Shown here one piece after another: positions 23,321-34,793 of a DNA stretch of 37,830 nucleotides. This stretch comes from Patescibacteria group bacterium UBA5187 (lineage in GTDB: Bacteria > Patescibacteriota > Minisyncoccia > Phycocordibacterales > PALSA-1337), in the NCBI GenBank assembly GCA_002413065.1, contig DHWH01000010.1, forward strand, positions 348 through 38,177, written 5' to 3'. The translations under genes and the position numbers were made by a program. The notes below the pieces were generated by a model. The model did not search any database and had not been told where the DNA came from. It worked only from the letters and a program-made list of their open reading frames with translations. Positions within the stretch are counted from its first letter, which is position 1. Each line of letters opens with the position of its first letter.

Positions 23321-23779
23321 ATGATTGCCTGGCTAAAAGGGAAATATACTACCGCCTGCATTGCCTATCCGGTATCCGCCAAAATTGGCAGGTACGTTAT
23401 TTCCGGAGGCACCGCTGCTGCAGTCAATCTGGTACTTCTTTATATCCTCACGGAATATGCCGGCATGTGGTATCTCTTGTCAGCAGTATGCTCGTTCATC
23501 ATCGCCTTCGGCGTAAGCTTTATTTTGCAAAAGAGCTGGACATTCCAGGATGCATCGAAAGACGGCATTCATCGTCAGCTCCTCGCTTATTTATTAGTTG
23601 CCTTGATCAACTTGGGCCTCAATACCGCTTTGCTGTATTCATTTGTGGAATATGCAAAACTGCATTATCTGCTCTCGCAAATTATGGCCGGCATCATTGT
23701 CGCGGCCGAAAGCTTCTTTGTGTATCAGATTTTTATCTTCAAAAAGCCCCAGATTCAAGCCGAGGTCGAAGCCGAATAG
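23321..23779 (+). CDS. GtrA-family small membrane protein
   Basis: 152 aa with 4 TM segments. 'RYVISGGTAAAVNLVLLYILTEYAGMWYLLSAVCSFIIAFGVSFILQKSWTF' matches the GtrA-like family pattern. Confidence 0.8.
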   Translation: MIAWLKGKYTTACIAYPVSAKIGRYVISGGTAAAVNLVLLYILTEYAGMWYLLSAVCSFIIAFGVSFILQKSWTFQDASKDGIHRQLLAYLLVALINLGLNTALLYSFVEYAKLHYLLSQIMAGIIVAAESFFVYQIFIFKKPQIQAEVEAE

Positions 23780-23876
23780 TGCACAAGTTATCCTCTTGCG
23801 TTCTATTTTTACATGTACTACCATTGTGATGTGAGTACCTCGTGCGGGCTCTCCAATAATAAATGTTTCGCAAAGT

Positions 23877-23896
23877 GGCCCACCTCGGGCCTTTTT
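23877..23896 (+). terminator. Rho-independent terminator candidate after the gtrA-like gene
   Basis: GGCCC (23877-23881), loop ACCTC, GGGCC (23887-23891), then TTTTT (23892-23896). The stem is short (5 GC pairs). Confidence 0.45.
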
Positions 23897-23914
23897 GCGT
23901 ATTGGGTAAGTAAT

Positions 23915-24019
23915 TGGCAAGAGCACACAAGATTCATCTCCAATCCAAATGTTGGTGTTACATAAAATTTCGAGACACGTTCAAACTTGTTTGGAGATGA
24001 ATCTTGTGTGCTCTTGCCA
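23915..24019. repeat. Perfect 29-bp inverted repeat (hairpin/cruciform-forming) with a 47-nt loop
   Basis: TGGCAAGAGCACACAAGATTCATCTCCAA (23915-23943) is the exact reverse complement of TTGGAGATGAATCTTGTGTGCTCTTGCCA (23991-24019), verified base by base. Confidence 0.95.
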
Positions 24020-24062
24020 CGTTCTGCACCCGCACGCTATACTTACTAGAGATTGCACCAAG

Positions 24063-24128
24063 TGACGGCGACGGTTGTACTCACATAAATTTAAACATTT
24101 TATTTGGAGCTCGCACCCGTCGCCATCA
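24063..24128 (+). other. GC-rich stem-loop immediately upstream of murB (possible 5'-leader or regulatory structure)
   Basis: GGCGACGG (24067-24074) pairs with CCGTCGCC (24117-24124). The stem is extended by TGA/TCA across one mismatch. The loop is 42 nt. No T-run follows, and the structure ends 20 nt before ATG 24148. Confidence 0.4.
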
Positions 24129-24147
24129 TTGGGTACAATATATTTCA

Positions 24148-25185
24148 ATGAAAATCCTTGAACATGTTCCGCTCGCGTCTTATACGACTTTCAAAATTGG
24201 CGGTCCGGCACGGTTTTTTTGCGTATGTGCAAATGAGTTGGATCTTGTGGAAGCGGTCATATATGCCAAGAGCAAGGATCTTCCTATTTTTGTGCTTGGC
24301 GGTGGTTCCAATATTCTCATTTCCGACGAAGGATTTACAGGAATGGTCATTAAGATGGAAATAAAAGGCATCGAATATCAGGGTGCAAATCCGGATGGTA
24401 CGGTATGCGTATCCGCTGCCGCAGGAGAAACATGGGATGATCTGGTGAACGACACGGTAGGACGGGGCTTGTATGGATTGGAAAATTTATCGGCCATTCC
24501 CGGAAGTGTCGGTGCGACCCCGGTGCAAAATATCGGCGCATACGGCAGGGAAGCTTCGGAAGTAATCGAATCCGTACGCGTATTGGACACTCACACGCTT
24601 CAACTTTTCGATCTATCGAATTCCGAATGTCATTTTAGTTATCGAGACAGCGTTTTCAAACATGTGAAGGGACGTTACGTCATTACGCGAGTTGATTTTA
24701 ATTTGTCTCCGATCGGCAAGCCTGATATAGAGTACAAAGAGTTGAAAAATTATTTTGCCCCTAAATTTTCTGACCCCGCTTTTACAGGTCCGACTCTGAA
24801 AGAAGTACGACAGGCCGTTATCGATGTGCGCTGGGGCAAATTACCGGATTGGAAATTGTGGGGAACTGCAGGATCATTTTTTAAAAATCCAATGATCTCA
24901 ACCGAGCATTTTTCAGATCTCAAACAAAAATATCCCGAGATTATGGGGTTTCCCGAAGCTAACGGATTGATCAAGGTTTCTTTGGCTTGGATTCTCGACA
25001 AAGTGTGCAATGTGAAAGGATTATGTGTCGGAAATGTGTGCACGTACGACAAGCAGGCGCTTGTGGTTGTTACGAAACCTGGCGCAGCGGCTTCAGAAGT
25101 TGTTGAATTGACGCACGAACTCATGAGACGTACGAAGGAAAAAACGGGCATCGAGATCGAAGCGGAGGTGGAATGGGTGAATTAA
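24148..25185 (+). CDS. murB: UDP-N-acetylenolpyruvoylglucosamine reductase
   Basis: 'LASYTTFKIGGPARFF', 'IFVLGGGSNILISDEGF' and 'LSAIPGSVGATPVQNIGAYG' are canonical MurB blocks. The upstream extension from 24004 runs through the palindrome region and is rejected. Confidence 0.9.
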   Translation: MKILEHVPLASYTTFKIGGPARFFCVCANELDLVEAVIYAKSKDLPIFVLGGGSNILISDEGFTGMVIKMEIKGIEYQGANPDGTVCVSAAAGETWDDLVNDTVGRGLYGLENLSAIPGSVGATPVQNIGAYGREASEVIESVRVLDTHTLQLFDLSNSECHFSYRDSVFKHVKGRYVITRVDFNLSPIGKPDIEYKELKNYFAPKFSDPAFTGPTLKEVRQAVIDVRWGKLPDWKLWGTAGSFFKNPMISTEHFSDLKQKYPEIMGFPEANGLIKVSLAWILDKVCNVKGLCVGNVCTYDKQALVVVTKPGAAASEVVELTHELMRRTKEKTGIEIEAEVEWVN

Positions 25186-27988: not shown

Positions 27989-28291
27989 CTAGTCAAAATA
28001 ACGCCGGCCGTGGGGATTGAACTTTTTGATTATCTGTTGAAAGCCGCCTCTTTTGTCGATGAGTTTTCTGGAAATGCCCGAAATCGTTTTTGAACTTAGT
28101 TGTGTCATTTGCTCGATTTGAGAATACGGAGCTCCATCATATAGTAAGCAAGCTGCATGAAGTCTATTGGCAAGTGAGTCGATTTCTTTTTTAGTGAGAA
28201 GATCCTTCAGTAGGTCTCTAATCAAATGTGTGTTTTCTGCTAGCACAAATGCCTGCACGAGTCTTTCTTTGTCAGGATAGTTCCAATACAT
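27989..28291 (-). CDS. TrpR-related YerC/YecD-family DNA-binding protein
   Basis: 100 aa. 'LLKDLLTKKEIDSLANRLHAACLL..GAPYSQIEQMTQLSSKTISGISRKL' matches the YerC/YecD Trp-repressor-like pattern. Confidence 0.75.
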   Translation of the reverse strand: MYWNYPDKERLVQAFVLAENTHLIRDLLKDLLTKKEIDSLANRLHAACLLYDGAPYSQIEQMTQLSSKTISGISRKLIDKRGGFQQIIKKFNPHGRRYFD

Positions 28292-30191: not shown

Positions 30192-31280
30192 ATGGCATTC
30201 ATAGACGAAATACAATTTCATGCGAAAGCAGGCGACGGCGGAATAGGCGTCGTGCGCTGGCGTCATGAGCGCGGCAAAGAATATGCCGGTGCAGCCGGCG
30301 GCAATGGAGGCGCAGGCGGTGACATATATGTACGCGCCGTTCGCGACATCAATATGCTCGCGCGCCACAAGGCCGTGAAGACATTTACTTCAGGCAAGGG
30401 CCGTGATGGTCAGAACTGGAGCATGCAAGGAAAAAGTGGCGAAGATTGCACCATCGATATACCTGTCGGATCAGTCGTTACCAACATGAACAGCGGGCGC
30501 GTCGTTGAGCTTGTTACAGACGGACAGATTTCGAAAATTCTCCACGGAGGACGCGGCGGTCTGGGCAATGAATATTTCAAAGCTTCCACCAATGTGCGTC
30601 CCGAACAATCCACAGGCGGTACGCCCGGGGAAGAAGCGGACTTCAAAGTCGAGCTCAACCTTATTGCTGATGCCGGCCTCATCGGACTTCCTAATGCCGG
30701 CAAGTCAAGTCTGCTCAATGCTCTGACAAATGCGAATGCCAAAGTGGGAAATTATGCGTTCACGACACTCGATCCGAACCTCGGCGCTCTTCCCGGAGGA
30801 TACATTCTCGCCGATCTCCCGGGTCTCATCGAAGGCGCCGCTGAAGGGAAAGGCCTCGGTCACAAGTTTCTCAAGCATGTAAAGCGTACACGAATGGTTC
30901 TTCATCTTGTATCGTTGGAAAATGCAGGCGCAGGTGCGGGCGTCACCGGACTCGAACAAGCCTACCGCACGGTCCGCGAAGAATTGGAAAAATTCGGCAA
31001 CGGCCTCAACGAAAAAACAGAAGTTATTATTTTGACGAAGACTGATATTGCCGATGCGCAGGCCGTCAAGGAAGCTTGCGCCGCATTACAAAAATACGGC
31101 CATGATATTCTTGAAGTCTCCGTTCTCGACGACACCTCGATCAAATCGCTTTCTGATAACATCGCACGAAAGTTGGAGGCGGAAGCTGCGGCAGAGACAA
31201 AGGCATCCATGGATGCAGGCGAAATGTCCGATGCGGATACTGGTTCAGTAATGGAAGGCGCAACAGAGTCCGCTGAGTAA
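30192..31280 (+). CDS. obg: GTPase Obg/CgtA
   Basis: Obg fold 'FIDEIQFHAKAGDGGIGVVRWRHERGKEYAGAAGGNGGAGGDIYV'. G1 motif 'GLPNAGKSSLL', G3 'DLPGLIEGA' and G4 'TKTD'. Confidence 0.92.
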   Translation: MAFIDEIQFHAKAGDGGIGVVRWRHERGKEYAGAAGGNGGAGGDIYVRAVRDINMLARHKAVKTFTSGKGRDGQNWSMQGKSGEDCTIDIPVGSVVTNMNSGRVVELVTDGQISKILHGGRGGLGNEYFKASTNVRPEQSTGGTPGEEADFKVELNLIADAGLIGLPNAGKSSLLNALTNANAKVGNYAFTTLDPNLGALPGGYILADLPGLIEGAAEGKGLGHKFLKHVKRTRMVLHLVSLENAGAGAGVTGLEQAYRTVREELEKFGNGLNEKTEVIILTKTDIADAQAVKEACAALQKYGHDILEVSVLDDTSIKSLSDNIARKLEAEAAAETKASMDAGEMSDADTGSVMEGATESAE

Positions 31281-31323
31281 GAGTTGCCCAGGGCGGAACT
31301 TTCTGGTAATCTCAGCGTCAGAT

Positions 31324-31602
31324 ATGAATACGTCTGAACGCGAACCGTACGAACGTGCACGGAACGCGAAACAATTCCCTAGATATGCTGACGCCTTTTT
31401 GAATGGCGACATTCTCATCTTGGAGAATGTCGAGAAAAGAGAGATGATCTTACGTTGGACCGATACCTCGGTATGTCTTCCGGACATGCGACTTGTCCAG
31501 CATGTATTAAGTCATTTTGCCCGTTGTCCGCTGGAGGTTCAAAAATTTGATATTTGTGGCGATAACGGCAAAGGCATCCAACTCGTATGGCCGATGAGTT
31601 GA
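31324..31602 (+). CDS. Hypothetical small protein (92 aa)
   Basis: ATG ORF filling the space between the convergent obg and DMT genes. No motif recognised. It may be non-coding. Confidence 0.3.
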   Translation: MNTSEREPYERARNAKQFPRYADAFLNGDILILENVEKREMILRWTDTSVCLPDMRLVQHVLSHFARCPLEVQKFDICGDNGKGIQLVWPMS

Positions 31603-31613
31603 TTGATCGACAA

Positions 31614-32524
31614 CTAGGTTCGCCGACTTGCTGGGTAAACCCTGGCTTTTTTTATTTCTGCAAAATATGGCAAAGCTATCGCGCAGATGATTAGTATACC
31701 GCCGATAATGACTTGAGAATTTAATGTTTGGCGGAATATAAGAATACCAAAACCGATACTAAATACGATCTCCAGTAATCCTAATAGGCCACCAATACTT
31801 GCCTCCGCGTATTTGAGTCCGTGGATGATAGCCCAAAATCCTACGAGGCTAACCAGTGTGTATGCGATCTGATACACCCATATCAATTCGAATGAGAACG
31901 GATGCTGAGTCTCTCCGATGTACAACGAGATGATTATGTTCGTAATGAAGATGACTAGCCAACTGAGCCATGACAAATAAAGAGGAGAGTAGTCACCGGA
32001 TAATTTCTTGGAGAACGATATCTCACTTCCACTTGCAATGCCGTTTACGATTGCCATCAGGGCAGCGAAAAGTGCAAAAGCAATGATAGAAAAAGAGAAT
32101 GTTATGTAAAGTCCGAGGCAAGCGATTATAAGTGACACAATTTTTGTAGCAGTGATTTTTTCCTTAAGGAAAAAATACCGACGGCATACATTGTGAGTAG
32201 CATGCTTACAAAGAAGAGCAGTGTTGCCGTACCGATGTCCATGTGATTGAAAGCATAAAATATCGGGGCTTGTGTCAGAGAAGTAGCGATCAGAAATATA
32301 GAAAGCCAACCCCAGTCAGCTTTCTTGATTGGAACAATATGCTTACCGTAGTATAAGATTGGAAATAGTATGACTGTAAGGATTAGTCCTCGAGTCCATC
32401 CCTGATAGAATGGTCCGAACGAACTTCCAATTAATTTTGACCATACGCCGTAACTGCCGAACATCAGTGTAGATAGCAAGATCAATAGGATGCCGCGTTT
32501 CTTTAAATTAACTGCCGAAGTCAT
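31614..32524 (-). pseudogene. EamA/DMT-superfamily transporter split by a 1-nt deletion in a homopolymer (A6 on the plus strand, 32170-32175)
   Basis: ORFs 32126..32524 and 31614..32309 are two halves of a 10-TM DMT protein. Reading GGTATTTTTTCC with seven T instead of six restores '...LLTMYAVGIFFLKEKITATKIVSLIIACLG...' and gives about 303 aa. Confidence 0.75.
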
Positions 32525-34112: not shown

Positions 34113-34361
34113 CTAATCAGTCAAATGCTGAACAACCAGCTTCCGGACCTCCTTTTTATTGGGTTTCTTGCCTTTACTGGATTCAATCTCCATAAGGAGC
34201 TTCTCGATGTCTTCGAGCTTATAAACCCTATAGTTATTGATAGGATGTCGCGATGCGCAGAATTTGCCGCTGTTGTCCCAGTTCCGCAGGGTCAAAGGAG
34301 TCACACCCAATATCTTGGCTGCATTTTTTATGGTGATGAGTTTTATGGTTGAGATATCCAT
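34113..34361 (-). CDS. MerR/excisionase-type helix-turn-helix DNA-binding protein (82 aa)
   Basis: 'ITIKNAAKILGVTPLTLRNWDNSGKF...RHPINNYRVYKLEDIEKL' matches the MerR-type HTH pattern. It lies 24 nt upstream of gatB on the same strand. Confidence 0.7.
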   Translation of the reverse strand: MDISTIKLITIKNAAKILGVTPLTLRNWDNSGKFCASRHPINNYRVYKLEDIEKLLMEIESSKGKKPNKKEVRKLVVQHLTD

Positions 34362-34793
34362 AGATTAATAAACATTACTATACATTGATAAATATGATAG
34401 TTGAATAAGAAGTTTTTATCATAGTTTATGAAATAATATCAAGTTACCAGATCAGATGATTACATTTTAGCATATCATTCGAAAGATGTAACAGGTGATG
34501 TGACACTATAACTCATTCAAGATTCATCAAGTTATTAAATTACCCAAAAGTTTATTAAATGAGCTTGAAAATGTAGCTCTTTATCAGAAAAGATGGCGCC
34601 TATTTATCTCTTTTGAGGATCCTTTTGCTCTAGCGAGCGTATATCGAGTTACTGACGGTGTCGTCAGAATGATATTTTCTTTTATCACCCTCCTCCACTA
34701 TACCATTCAAAAAATAGTTGGTGTGATGAGTTGTCCACAGAATTTTCGATAAAATAAACACCATATCCGATGTATACTTGTAGGCAAAGGAAC

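Follow-up and report, generated by a model that had tools for sequence, protein, structure and literature searches.

The spacer upstream of murB in Patescibacteria bacterium UBA5187 probably combines a small RNA, a murB leader with which it may pair and a separate palindromic insertion

The intergenic spacer upstream of murB in Patescibacteria group bacterium UBA5187 (assembly GCA_002413065.1, contig DHWH01000010.1) was examined within a stretch of 37,830 nucleotides of this contig, which is referred to here as the window and to which all unlabelled positions refer. This spacer, located between a gtrA-like gene and murB, probably consists of three independent units, namely a gene for a small RNA (sRNA) termed A, a murB leader termed B with which A would pair in trans, and a dispensable hairpin insertion resembling miniature inverted-repeat transposable elements (MITEs) and REPINs, the hairpins formed by doublets of repetitive extragenic palindromic (REP) sequences (Table 1). 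An initial annotation of the spacer had described four dyad symmetries, these being a terminator-like hairpin (feature (a)), a perfect 29-bp inverted repeat (feature (b)), an outer degenerate inverted repeat (feature (c)) and a GC-rich hairpin (feature (d)). All four were confirmed in the sequence, coordinates included. Their interpretation as layers of one nested element was not upheld, as comparison of approximately 60 genomes divides the spacer into sRNA A, leader B and a variable insert.

The comparison was based on the murB neighbourhoods of the closest relatives (loci labelled L0xx), taken from approximately 60 related genomes of Paceibacteria. The organism is a member of the Patescibacteria of the Paceibacteria/Taylorbacteria kind, and among 5.8 billion proteins none was found to exceed 67% identity to the MurB of the window. 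The spacer upstream of murB is always large in these relatives and was found to possess two strongly conserved blocks, A and B, with a variable middle between them.

The 368-nt spacer was 100% identical in four assemblies built with different pipelines (ENA ERZ27248614, JGI 3300011999, JGI 3300001320 and Logan SRR1586289). An assembly artefact, such as the fold-back or chimeric junction at 23967 that the initial annotation had considered, is therefore excluded, the same 368 nt being present base for base in each of these differently built assemblies. Over 14-21 kb these four assemblies do not differ, except for one single nucleotide polymorphism in one of them; they represent one clonal population and carry no population-level information.

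Pairing between A and B

The two halves of feature (c) were found to lie in the 5’ part of A (segment A2) and in the loop of the B hairpin (segment B2). The 5’ part of A is complementary to this loop, with the seed ...AAAUGU[Y]U of A pairing with A[R]ACAUUU of B. Across 55 species, the pair formed by the Y of the seed and the R of the loop was U-A in 27, C-G in 26 and A-U in one, and was broken in none; in the window it consists of U 23867 and A 24094. Both of the common states are scattered over the MurB tree, implying several independent switches. Formal covariation analysis with 23 distinct rows (CG in twelve, UA in ten and AU in one) gave a score of 0.138, compared to 0.091 +/- 0.010 for shuffles; this score was reached by none of 500 shuffles and exceeded those of all slid registers. 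The second helix, A1:B1, was found to change from G-C to A-U in L029, L038, L061 and L063, and each of the four A sequences with an initial A is accompanied by a B1 ending in U. The mean duplex energy was -20.2 kcal/mol for cognate A:B pairs versus -10.4 kcal/mol for shuffled A. At the DNA level, the mismatches between the halves of feature (c) are G.U-compatible on the + strand only, and the complementarity of A and B is kept whatever the orientation of A or its distance from B.

The covariation shows feature (c) to be, as far as sequence can establish it, the interface at which A and B would pair in trans. Together with the strand-specific G.U compatibility and the free position of A, it rules out that (c) belongs to a single structured transcript, or constitutes the terminal repeats of a MITE or the boundaries of an inverton (an invertible DNA segment). 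The earlier description of (c) as the outer inverted repeat of an element was thus set aside, given that its halves covary and remain complementary when A is inverted or moved.

The same evidence bears on the reading of the whole spacer as one structured RNA (a riboswitch-like leader or a large non-coding RNA), or as an invertible promoter switch bounded by feature (c), which is scarcely credible. The spacer does fold far better than shuffled sequences (z = -10.8 and -10.1 for the + and - strands, respectively), the repeats of (c) do flank a promoter, and the surrounding genes of the window are related to surface polysaccharide synthesis, a neighbourhood typical of invertons. However, a conserved terminator and a conserved promoter lie inside the spacer, and A still covaries with B in the 13 loci where it is inverted and in the two where it is located kilobases away. 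The mismatches of (c), being of G.U type on one strand, represent the signature of an RNA and not that of a recombination site. In addition, a single orientation was observed in all assemblies, no recombinase gene was identified among the called neighbours, and the left “repeat” moves with A when A is inverted or relocated. No Rfam family was matched either. Folding and Rfam searches had been suggested by the initial annotation, and these returned a strong fold (z about -10) and no family match, respectively: the window had no match in Rfam 15 at gathering thresholds, and relaxed thresholds gave generic microRNA-precursor models on the long hairpin only, at less than half the gathering score, plus a 15.9-bit match to the Thr leader. 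A search for tRNA and transfer-messenger RNA identified none. With regard to a retron, the neighbours are GtrA, MurB and SecA, and no reverse transcriptase was present among the called genes of the contig.

Features (c) and (d) had been proposed to be mutually exclusive. This holds for a single transcript; with two RNAs it does not, as (d) then closes the loop to which A pairs. The exclusivity is limited to one RNA because strand connectivity permits a three-way junction with two, and the closing stem of B, A2:B2 and A1:B1 may form such a junction. In free B, segment B1 can pair with the 3’ part of B2, and an apical loop of ~23 nt displays AGACAU. In free A, segment A1 can pair with the 5’ part of A2, and the seed stays single-stranded. 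As free A and free B both expose complementary single strands, a contact between loop and seed, followed by strand exchange, is suggested.

Small RNA A as a transcription unit

A search with nhmmer identified A as one copy per locus in ~52 loci. A and B share a strand in 38 loci and lie on opposite strands in 13; in L019 and L041, A is displaced from B by 1.5 and 3.8 kb, respectively. In L037 and L065, no A was identified in the 3.6-6 kb that precede B.

A promoter for A was recognized in 50+ loci, with the form TTGnnn-16/17-(TG)nTATAAT-like, a constant distance from GTGAGTAC and a spacer of variable sequence. The promoter scan picked up this promoter in L009 and L013, the window copy being under the scan threshold. 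Feature (a) was found by the terminator scan as GGCCC-ACCTC-GGGCC followed by TTTTT (23877-23896), and possesses the short GC-rich stem-loop and immediate U tract of an intrinsic terminator. Its GC-rich 5-bp inner stem is extended by CGCAAAG/CUUUUUGCG, after which the U run follows. The terminator stem was found to covary among species, with columns 60/75 of the alignment being GC in 23, CG in 20, AU in three and UA in two. Its own sigma-70-type promoter and terminator, as well as its free orientation and position, argue for A being an independent transcription unit, and it is as a predicted unit of this kind that the comparison shows it. A coding function for A was ruled out, as species differ in this block by indels whose lengths are not divisible by three.

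Upstream of the -35 of A, a DnaA box (TTATCCACA or TGTGGATAA, with at most one mismatch and in either orientation) was identified in 36 of 55 loci, 17 of these boxes being perfect, e.g. those of L009 and L063 (the loci with a box include L009, L018, L019, L023, L024, L026, L039 and L041). The background expectation is ~0.013 per locus, and the box is found at -39 to -63 relative to the A start. The presence of the box ahead of the -35 in this proportion of loci suggests that A may be under the control of DnaA.

The murB leader B

Block B was found to be nearly invariant over ~90 nt in 62 loci, even though the MurB proteins encoded there are merely 50-67% identical to that of the window. A 21-mer from B (TTGGAGCTCRCACCCGTCGCC) occurs exactly once per genome in 57 species genomes, all of them Patescibacteria. 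In 61 of 61 loci having downstream sequence, B is followed by the start of murB at a distance of 37-260 nt. In all 60 loci, a TATAAT-like -10 precedes GATTG by 5-9 nt, the accompanying -35 being TTGnnn and the spacer variable, and the promoter scan scored the B promoter of L009 at 11/12. The RNA of B in the window is predicted to fold with -33.6 kcal/mol (z = -6.0), and a compensatory change from C-G to G-C was identified in the B stem of L013. The base of the B hairpin lies 8 nt before the murB ATG in the window and 1-5 nt before it in several relatives; the murB ATG of the window is not preceded by a Shine-Dalgarno sequence. Comparison shows B as the predicted leader of the murB mRNA, a long hairpin that would be transcribed from its own promoter. 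A mini-ORF (open reading frame) within B (MTATAVLT...) was considered and rejected, its length and start codon being variable and its third positions invariant.

Approximately 25 gene starts were inspected in the window (e.g. 4314, 11230, 27989-28291 on the - strand, and 30192), and almost none was found to have a Shine-Dalgarno sequence. In several window genes, a TATAAT-like hexamer precedes the ATG by 7-12 nt. Leaderless mRNAs, or mRNAs with very short leaders, thus appear to be common in this organism, with murB as the exception in having a structured leader of ~98 nt that abuts its start codon.

Proposed working of the module

A may be envisaged as an RNA of ~65 nt produced from its own promoter and modulated by DnaA, the box for which lies beside the -35 in most relatives. 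Its single-stranded seed UCUCCAAUAAUAAAUGUUU and 5’ segments would pair with the loop of B, and the two intermolecular helices A2:B2 and A1:B1 would join the B stem, possibly as a three-way junction. This contact would alter access to the murB start or trigger processing, thereby setting the expression of murB and probably that of secA. A:B contact may thus control the translation or the stability of the murB(-secA) mRNA.

A bolder version of this scheme, which is speculative and to be regarded as unlikely, treats A and B as a bimolecular structured RNA, a three-way junction of ~150 nt with near-invariant unpaired nucleotides that would act beyond antisense occlusion, either by binding a ligand or protein or through a cleavage that makes murB leaderless. 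In this clade, the long perfect hairpin of the gap would then be kept as a supercoiling-sensitive cruciform gating the -35 of the leader. If true, the bimolecular RNA would couple DnaA status with cell-wall synthesis and secretion in Patescibacteria.

To our knowledge, very little is known of RNA-based regulation in the Candidate Phyla Radiation, members of which have tiny genomes with few recognisable regulators, and we know of no member of this Patescibacteria lineage in culture. The locus provides an sRNA and its putative target, defined by sequence alone, with perfect covariation in ~55 species and a position ahead of murB, which is essential for peptidoglycan synthesis, and of secA. With a DnaA box at its promoter, the sRNA may connect replication status with growth of the envelope, and RNA regulation of envelope synthesis in Patescibacteria is made directly testable.

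The 29-bp hairpin of the A-B gap

Feature (b) is a hairpin element placed between the terminator of A and the promoter of B, the -35 of which is formed by the last six bases of its right arm. Its arms of 29 nt are 100% complementary and represent the longest local inverted repeat of the 37.8-kb window. No arm match was found in 100 shuffled windows even when up to three mismatches were allowed, so that the mismatch-free stem is real and far beyond chance, as had been annotated. The hairpin alone was calculated to fold with -58.4 kcal/mol as RNA (z = -12.8) and with -36.2 kcal/mol as DNA (z = -11.3). It was agreed that this stem exceeds the requirements of a terminator or operator and that it is not explained by an ORF. 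The stem is followed by CGTTCTG with no U tract, and is therefore not that of an intrinsic terminator.

The sister species L016, in which A and B are 18 nt apart, was found to lack this hairpin, as were ~26 other tandem loci. Structure in the orthologous spacers had been raised as a check on the initial annotation, and was found to be conserved and covarying for A and B; the 29-bp hairpin itself is absent from most loci. Because it is missing from the sister species and most related loci, the hairpin appears to be dispensable, and is read as a lineage-specific palindromic insertion that is not part of the A/B module.

A 23-bp perfect palindrome with a 2-nt loop was also identified on the same contig, ~5.4 kb past the end of the window and directly after a gene with an RRM_1 domain (L074 19070-19117). 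It is unrelated to the 29-bp hairpin and looks like a long bidirectional terminator.

Long hairpins and gene cassettes in relatives

The A-B gap was found to range from 18 to 685 nt among the relatives. Long hairpins, the perfect stems of which measure 15-43 bp and the loops 36-93 nt, were identified in the gap of ~12 of 38 tandem loci and in none of 13 divergent loci. The loci bearing them are patchy on the MurB tree, and the gap hairpins are unrelated in sequence between species. A total of 32 hairpins with at least 16 perfect pairs were found in 0.5 Mb of related loci, being situated after wzy, A, B and murB, as well as inside secA with the frame kept open. The gap hairpins of L036 (917-1030) and L062 are homologous at only roughly 60% identity, and both are perfect (38 and 43 bp, respectively).

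Two related copies were present within 8 kb in each of L062 (2034-2159 and 4605-4726) and L030 (3366-3486 and 5721-5844). Differences between the arms of these copies are mirrored, e.g. AA to GG in one arm and TT to CC in the other; no target-site duplication was found at the L062 and L030 hairpins. Multi-nucleotide compensated arm changes were also identified in the close pair L018/L058. The related copies in L062, L030 and L036 diverge at many positions, and their arms of 38-45 bp stay perfectly complementary. This persistence of complementarity during sequence divergence points to a concerted evolution of hairpin arms, through either arm-to-arm correction or strong selection for pairing. 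Such diverging yet perfect-armed hairpins offer a clean system for the study of concerted evolution in palindromes.

In-frame palindromic hairpins were observed inside secA in L056 (2009-2102), L071 (7223-7314) and L031 (5579-5696), with the ORFs staying open. The secA inserts of two species share a common arm, TGTCATTCCCGCGAAGGCGGGAATCCAG, which translates as VIPAKAGIQ...LDSRLRGND and resembles Rickettsia palindromic elements (RPEs). A literature search for the translated repeat strings IPAKAGIQ and RLRGND gave no match.

Gene cassettes were also found in the gap. In L052 (5512-5988) and L017 (846-1226) it holds a nuclease gene of the PD-(D/E)XK type (PF13366) with flanking inverted repeats of ~43 bp composed of ACGAAT repeats, and a broken copy of this cassette is present in the gap of L045 (489-742). 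The hairpin of L008 (3744-3824) has arms of the same ACGAAT repeats and no nuclease gene, and is apparently a gene-less derivative of the cassette. The occurrence of unrelated hairpins and gene cassettes in one gap argues that it represents an insertion-prone “safe” slot, in which long hairpins behave like selfish palindromes of the MITE/REPIN/RPE type with arms that evolve in concert.

Origin of the window hairpin

By analogy with the hairpins of these relatives, the MITE-like origin that had been put forward for the 29-bp hairpin stays the best-supported reading, and the hairpin may be described as a MITE/REPIN-like element. Its perfect 29-nt arms form the entire ends of the 105-nt unit, as is the case for the terminal inverted repeats of MITEs.

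A number of observations weigh against the division of the spacer into two conserved units and a mobile insertion. The first of these concern the hairpin, for which no second copy, relative or target-site duplication was found, so that its label as a mobile element rests on analogy. Its flanks, ...GTAAGTAAT on the left and CGTTCTGCAC... on the right, show no direct repeat. A window search with up to three mismatches returned its own two arms alone, and no second copy exists within the 44.7-kb contig, including the 6 kb of it beyond the window; the initial annotation was thus borne out in reporting no target-site duplication and no second copy in the window. No sequence relative was identified among 15 other hairpins or 62 loci. 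Furthermore, a perfect 29/29 stem with a built-in -35 is also what would be expected of a selected regulatory hairpin, and most members of the clade to which the window belongs keep some long hairpin in the A-B slot. With regard to A, its promoter (8/12) and DnaA box (7/9) are weak in the window. Finally, B probably has a further partner, e.g. a protein, the ribosome or a ligand, because its near-invariance over ~90 nt exceeds what pairing with A requires.

Other sequence collections were also searched for the window hairpin. BLAST against phage and plasmid collections gave no match. Metagenomes were scanned for a 20-mer of the arm and a 21-mer of the loop with no match, a result of little weight because these scans also missed the organism’s own JGI contigs. 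Two matches among viral contigs were derived from one phage sequence, and were judged to be due to chance as they consisted of a single-arm 20-mer with unrelated flanks. A “CAAG” motif shared by the window hairpin with L036 and L062 was not significant.

The hairpin could instead be a selected part of the locus, namely an insulator or back-up terminator between a strongly expressed A and the B promoter, an RNase III site in read-through RNA, a cruciform sensitive to supercoiling by which the -35 would be hidden or exposed, or a structured non-coding RNA as the initial annotation had suggested. We hold this to be doubtful, yet worth serious consideration. Consistent with such a role, the B -35 lies inside the right arm in L036 and L062 as it does in the window, and abuts or overlaps the arm in L013 and L031; the long hairpins of most clade members occupy exactly the A-B slot; the stems of L036 and L062 stay perfect despite their sequence divergence; and the window hairpin is very stable both as DNA and as RNA. 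However, A and B are intact in L016, in ~26 tandem loci and in all divergent loci, where there is no hairpin, and no U tract follows the stem. In L008, L009, L011, L053, L057, L058 and L064 the hairpin is situated 46-119 nt upstream of the B start and is clear of the promoter. Such hairpins are also found in unrelated slots, including secA, which is better accounted for by selfish insertion.

A further alternative is that the hairpin arose as a recent in-situ inverted duplication, by template switching or fold-back in replication, and is perfect because it is young and not because it is mobile. This would agree with its orphan status, with no second copy or relative, and with the missing target-site duplication. 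The top of the left arm and start of the loop (TCTCCAAT-CC-AAATGTT, 23937-23953) also resemble the A seed (TCTCCAATAATAAATGTT, 23850-23867), a likeness equalled in 3 of 300 shuffles. However, this resemblance is marginal (~18 nt) and is not seen in most relatives, and no local source is apparent for most of the arm (TGGCAAGAGCACACAAGATTCA). Multi-copy hairpin families are present in relatives, and therefore indicate spread over repeated in-situ origin. An in-situ origin is accordingly considered very improbable, and the 29-bp stem is probably of mobile or selfish origin, with the conserved pair of sRNA and murB leader as the valuable part of the spacer. For genome scanning, the locus serves as a caution that dyad symmetries stacked in one spacer may be separate units.

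Organization of the locus

The features of the spacer and the adjoining genes are listed in Table 1. The GtrA-family gene is located between a Wzy/TPR gene and sRNA A in this organism only; in the ~60 relatives wzy directly precedes the sRNA region. Because the sRNA region adjoins wzy in all of these relatives, the GtrA-family gene is taken to be a lineage-specific insertion beside the A/B module. Other unusually long spacers were observed in the otherwise tightly packed window at 475-1000, 31280-31614 and 34353-34770, the last of which is AT-rich (GC 0.375) and contains a weak 27-nt inverted repeat (34365-34391 / 34532-34558).

Table 1. Positions in the window of the spacer features and neighbouring genes.
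Feature	Position	Strand	Description
GtrA-family gene	23321-23779		PF04138; 5’ neighbour of the spacer
Spacer	23780-24147		368 nt, between gtrA-like gene and murB
DnaA-box-like site TTATCCTCT	23788..23796	+	7/9 matches to TTATCCACA; abuts the -35 of the A promoter
A promoter (putative)	-35 TTGCGT 23796-23801; -10 TACCAT 23819-23824	+	17-nt spacer; 8/12 consensus matches
Small RNA A (putative)	23831-~23896	+	~65 nt; A1, A2 seed segment and intrinsic terminator; conserved block
A1, GUGAGUAC	23831-38	+	5’ segment of A
A2 with seed, GUGCGGGCUCUCCAAUAAUAAAUGUUU	23842-68	+	Left half of feature (c)
A terminator, feature (a)	Outer stem 23869-75/23891-99; inner stem 23877-81/23887-91	+	Followed by U run
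Hairpin element, feature (b)	23915..24019		105 nt; perfect 29-bp arms 23915-43 / 23991-24019, 47-nt AT-rich loop
B promoter (putative)	-35 TTGCCA 24014-19; -10 TATACT 24038-43	+	18-nt spacer; 10/12 in scan
murB leader hairpin B (putative)	24050-24140	+	Stem 24052-24077 with 24114-24139, few internal mismatches
Feature (d), GGCGACGG/CCGTCGCC	24067-74 / 24117-24	+	Part of the longer B stem, 24052-24139
B1, GUACUCAC	24077-84	+	In B loop
B2, AAACAUUUUAUUUGGAGCUCGCAC	24093-24116	+	In B loop; right half of feature (c)
murB	24148..25185	+	UDP-N-acetylenolpyruvoylglucosamine reductase; PF01565 + PF02873
secA	Start 25214 or 25223, end 27988	+	3’ of murB

Comparison with known systems

Classes with which the long hairpins can be compared are REPINs (REP doublets), MITEs and RPEs. 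Like these, the long hairpins are ~100-140 nt in length, consist essentially of one long hairpin, are non-coding, and occupy an intergenic slot just after a terminator. The hairpins of relatives share further traits with these classes, namely several copies, families, compensated arm changes and in-frame insertion in secA. The window hairpin differs from a MITE in that no relative, parent insertion sequence element or target-site duplication was found for it. On the 44.7-kb contig of this organism, neither a second copy nor a REP-associated tyrosine transposase (RAYT) or other transposase was identified. REPs as defined in PMC3733652 have a high copy number and are imperfect palindromes, 20-40 nt in length, that carry a conserved head of GTAG or CGTC; the definitions of REP and MITE applied here follow PMC3733652, PMC3184786 and PMC2229807. 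The window hairpin is unlike a REP in these respects, its 29-nt arms with a 47-nt loop beginning TGGCAAG with no GTAG or CGTC head, and a high copy number not being observed on this contig. The stems are also much longer than those of REPs, the window hairpin having 29 perfect pairs and those of relatives as many as 43-45.

Feature (a) resembles rho-independent terminators in its GC-rich stem, which covaries across species, and in its U run. Feature (b) is unlike these terminators, as it has a loop of 47 nt, no U run, and is absent from most orthologous loci.

Literature searches on palindromic repeats and structured RNAs of Patescibacteria returned nothing specific, and no description of the A/B pair was found. 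Systems in which an antisense RNA contacts the loop of its target include CopA-CopT of plasmid R1 and Sok-hok, and chromosomal sRNAs encoded adjacent to their targets include IstR-1/tisB and OhsC/shoB. For CopA-CopT, a loop contact has been described that leads to additional intermolecular helices and a multi-helix junction, much as is proposed for A and B. A/B differs from all of these in not being present in Rfam 15, and in that its putative target is the housekeeping cell-wall gene murB, with secA downstream, and not a replication or toxin gene. It is distinguished further by being chromosomal and single-copy in ~60 species of an uncultivated lineage, by the DnaA box at the sRNA promoter, and by being known here from sequence only. 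Unlike in cis-antisense systems, A is encoded beside its target and not opposite to it, and can be situated kilobases away. The A/B pair nevertheless resembles these systems in that a short RNA, with a predicted promoter and terminator of its own, would direct an exposed seed to the loop of a stable hairpin in a 5’ leader, and in the location of the sRNA gene beside its target, in tandem or divergent orientation. The free position and orientation of the transcription unit, along with its compensatory complementarity to the target, are features of trans-encoded base-pairing sRNAs. The mechanism of A/B would thus be of a known kind, that of a base-pairing sRNA acting on a leader hairpin.

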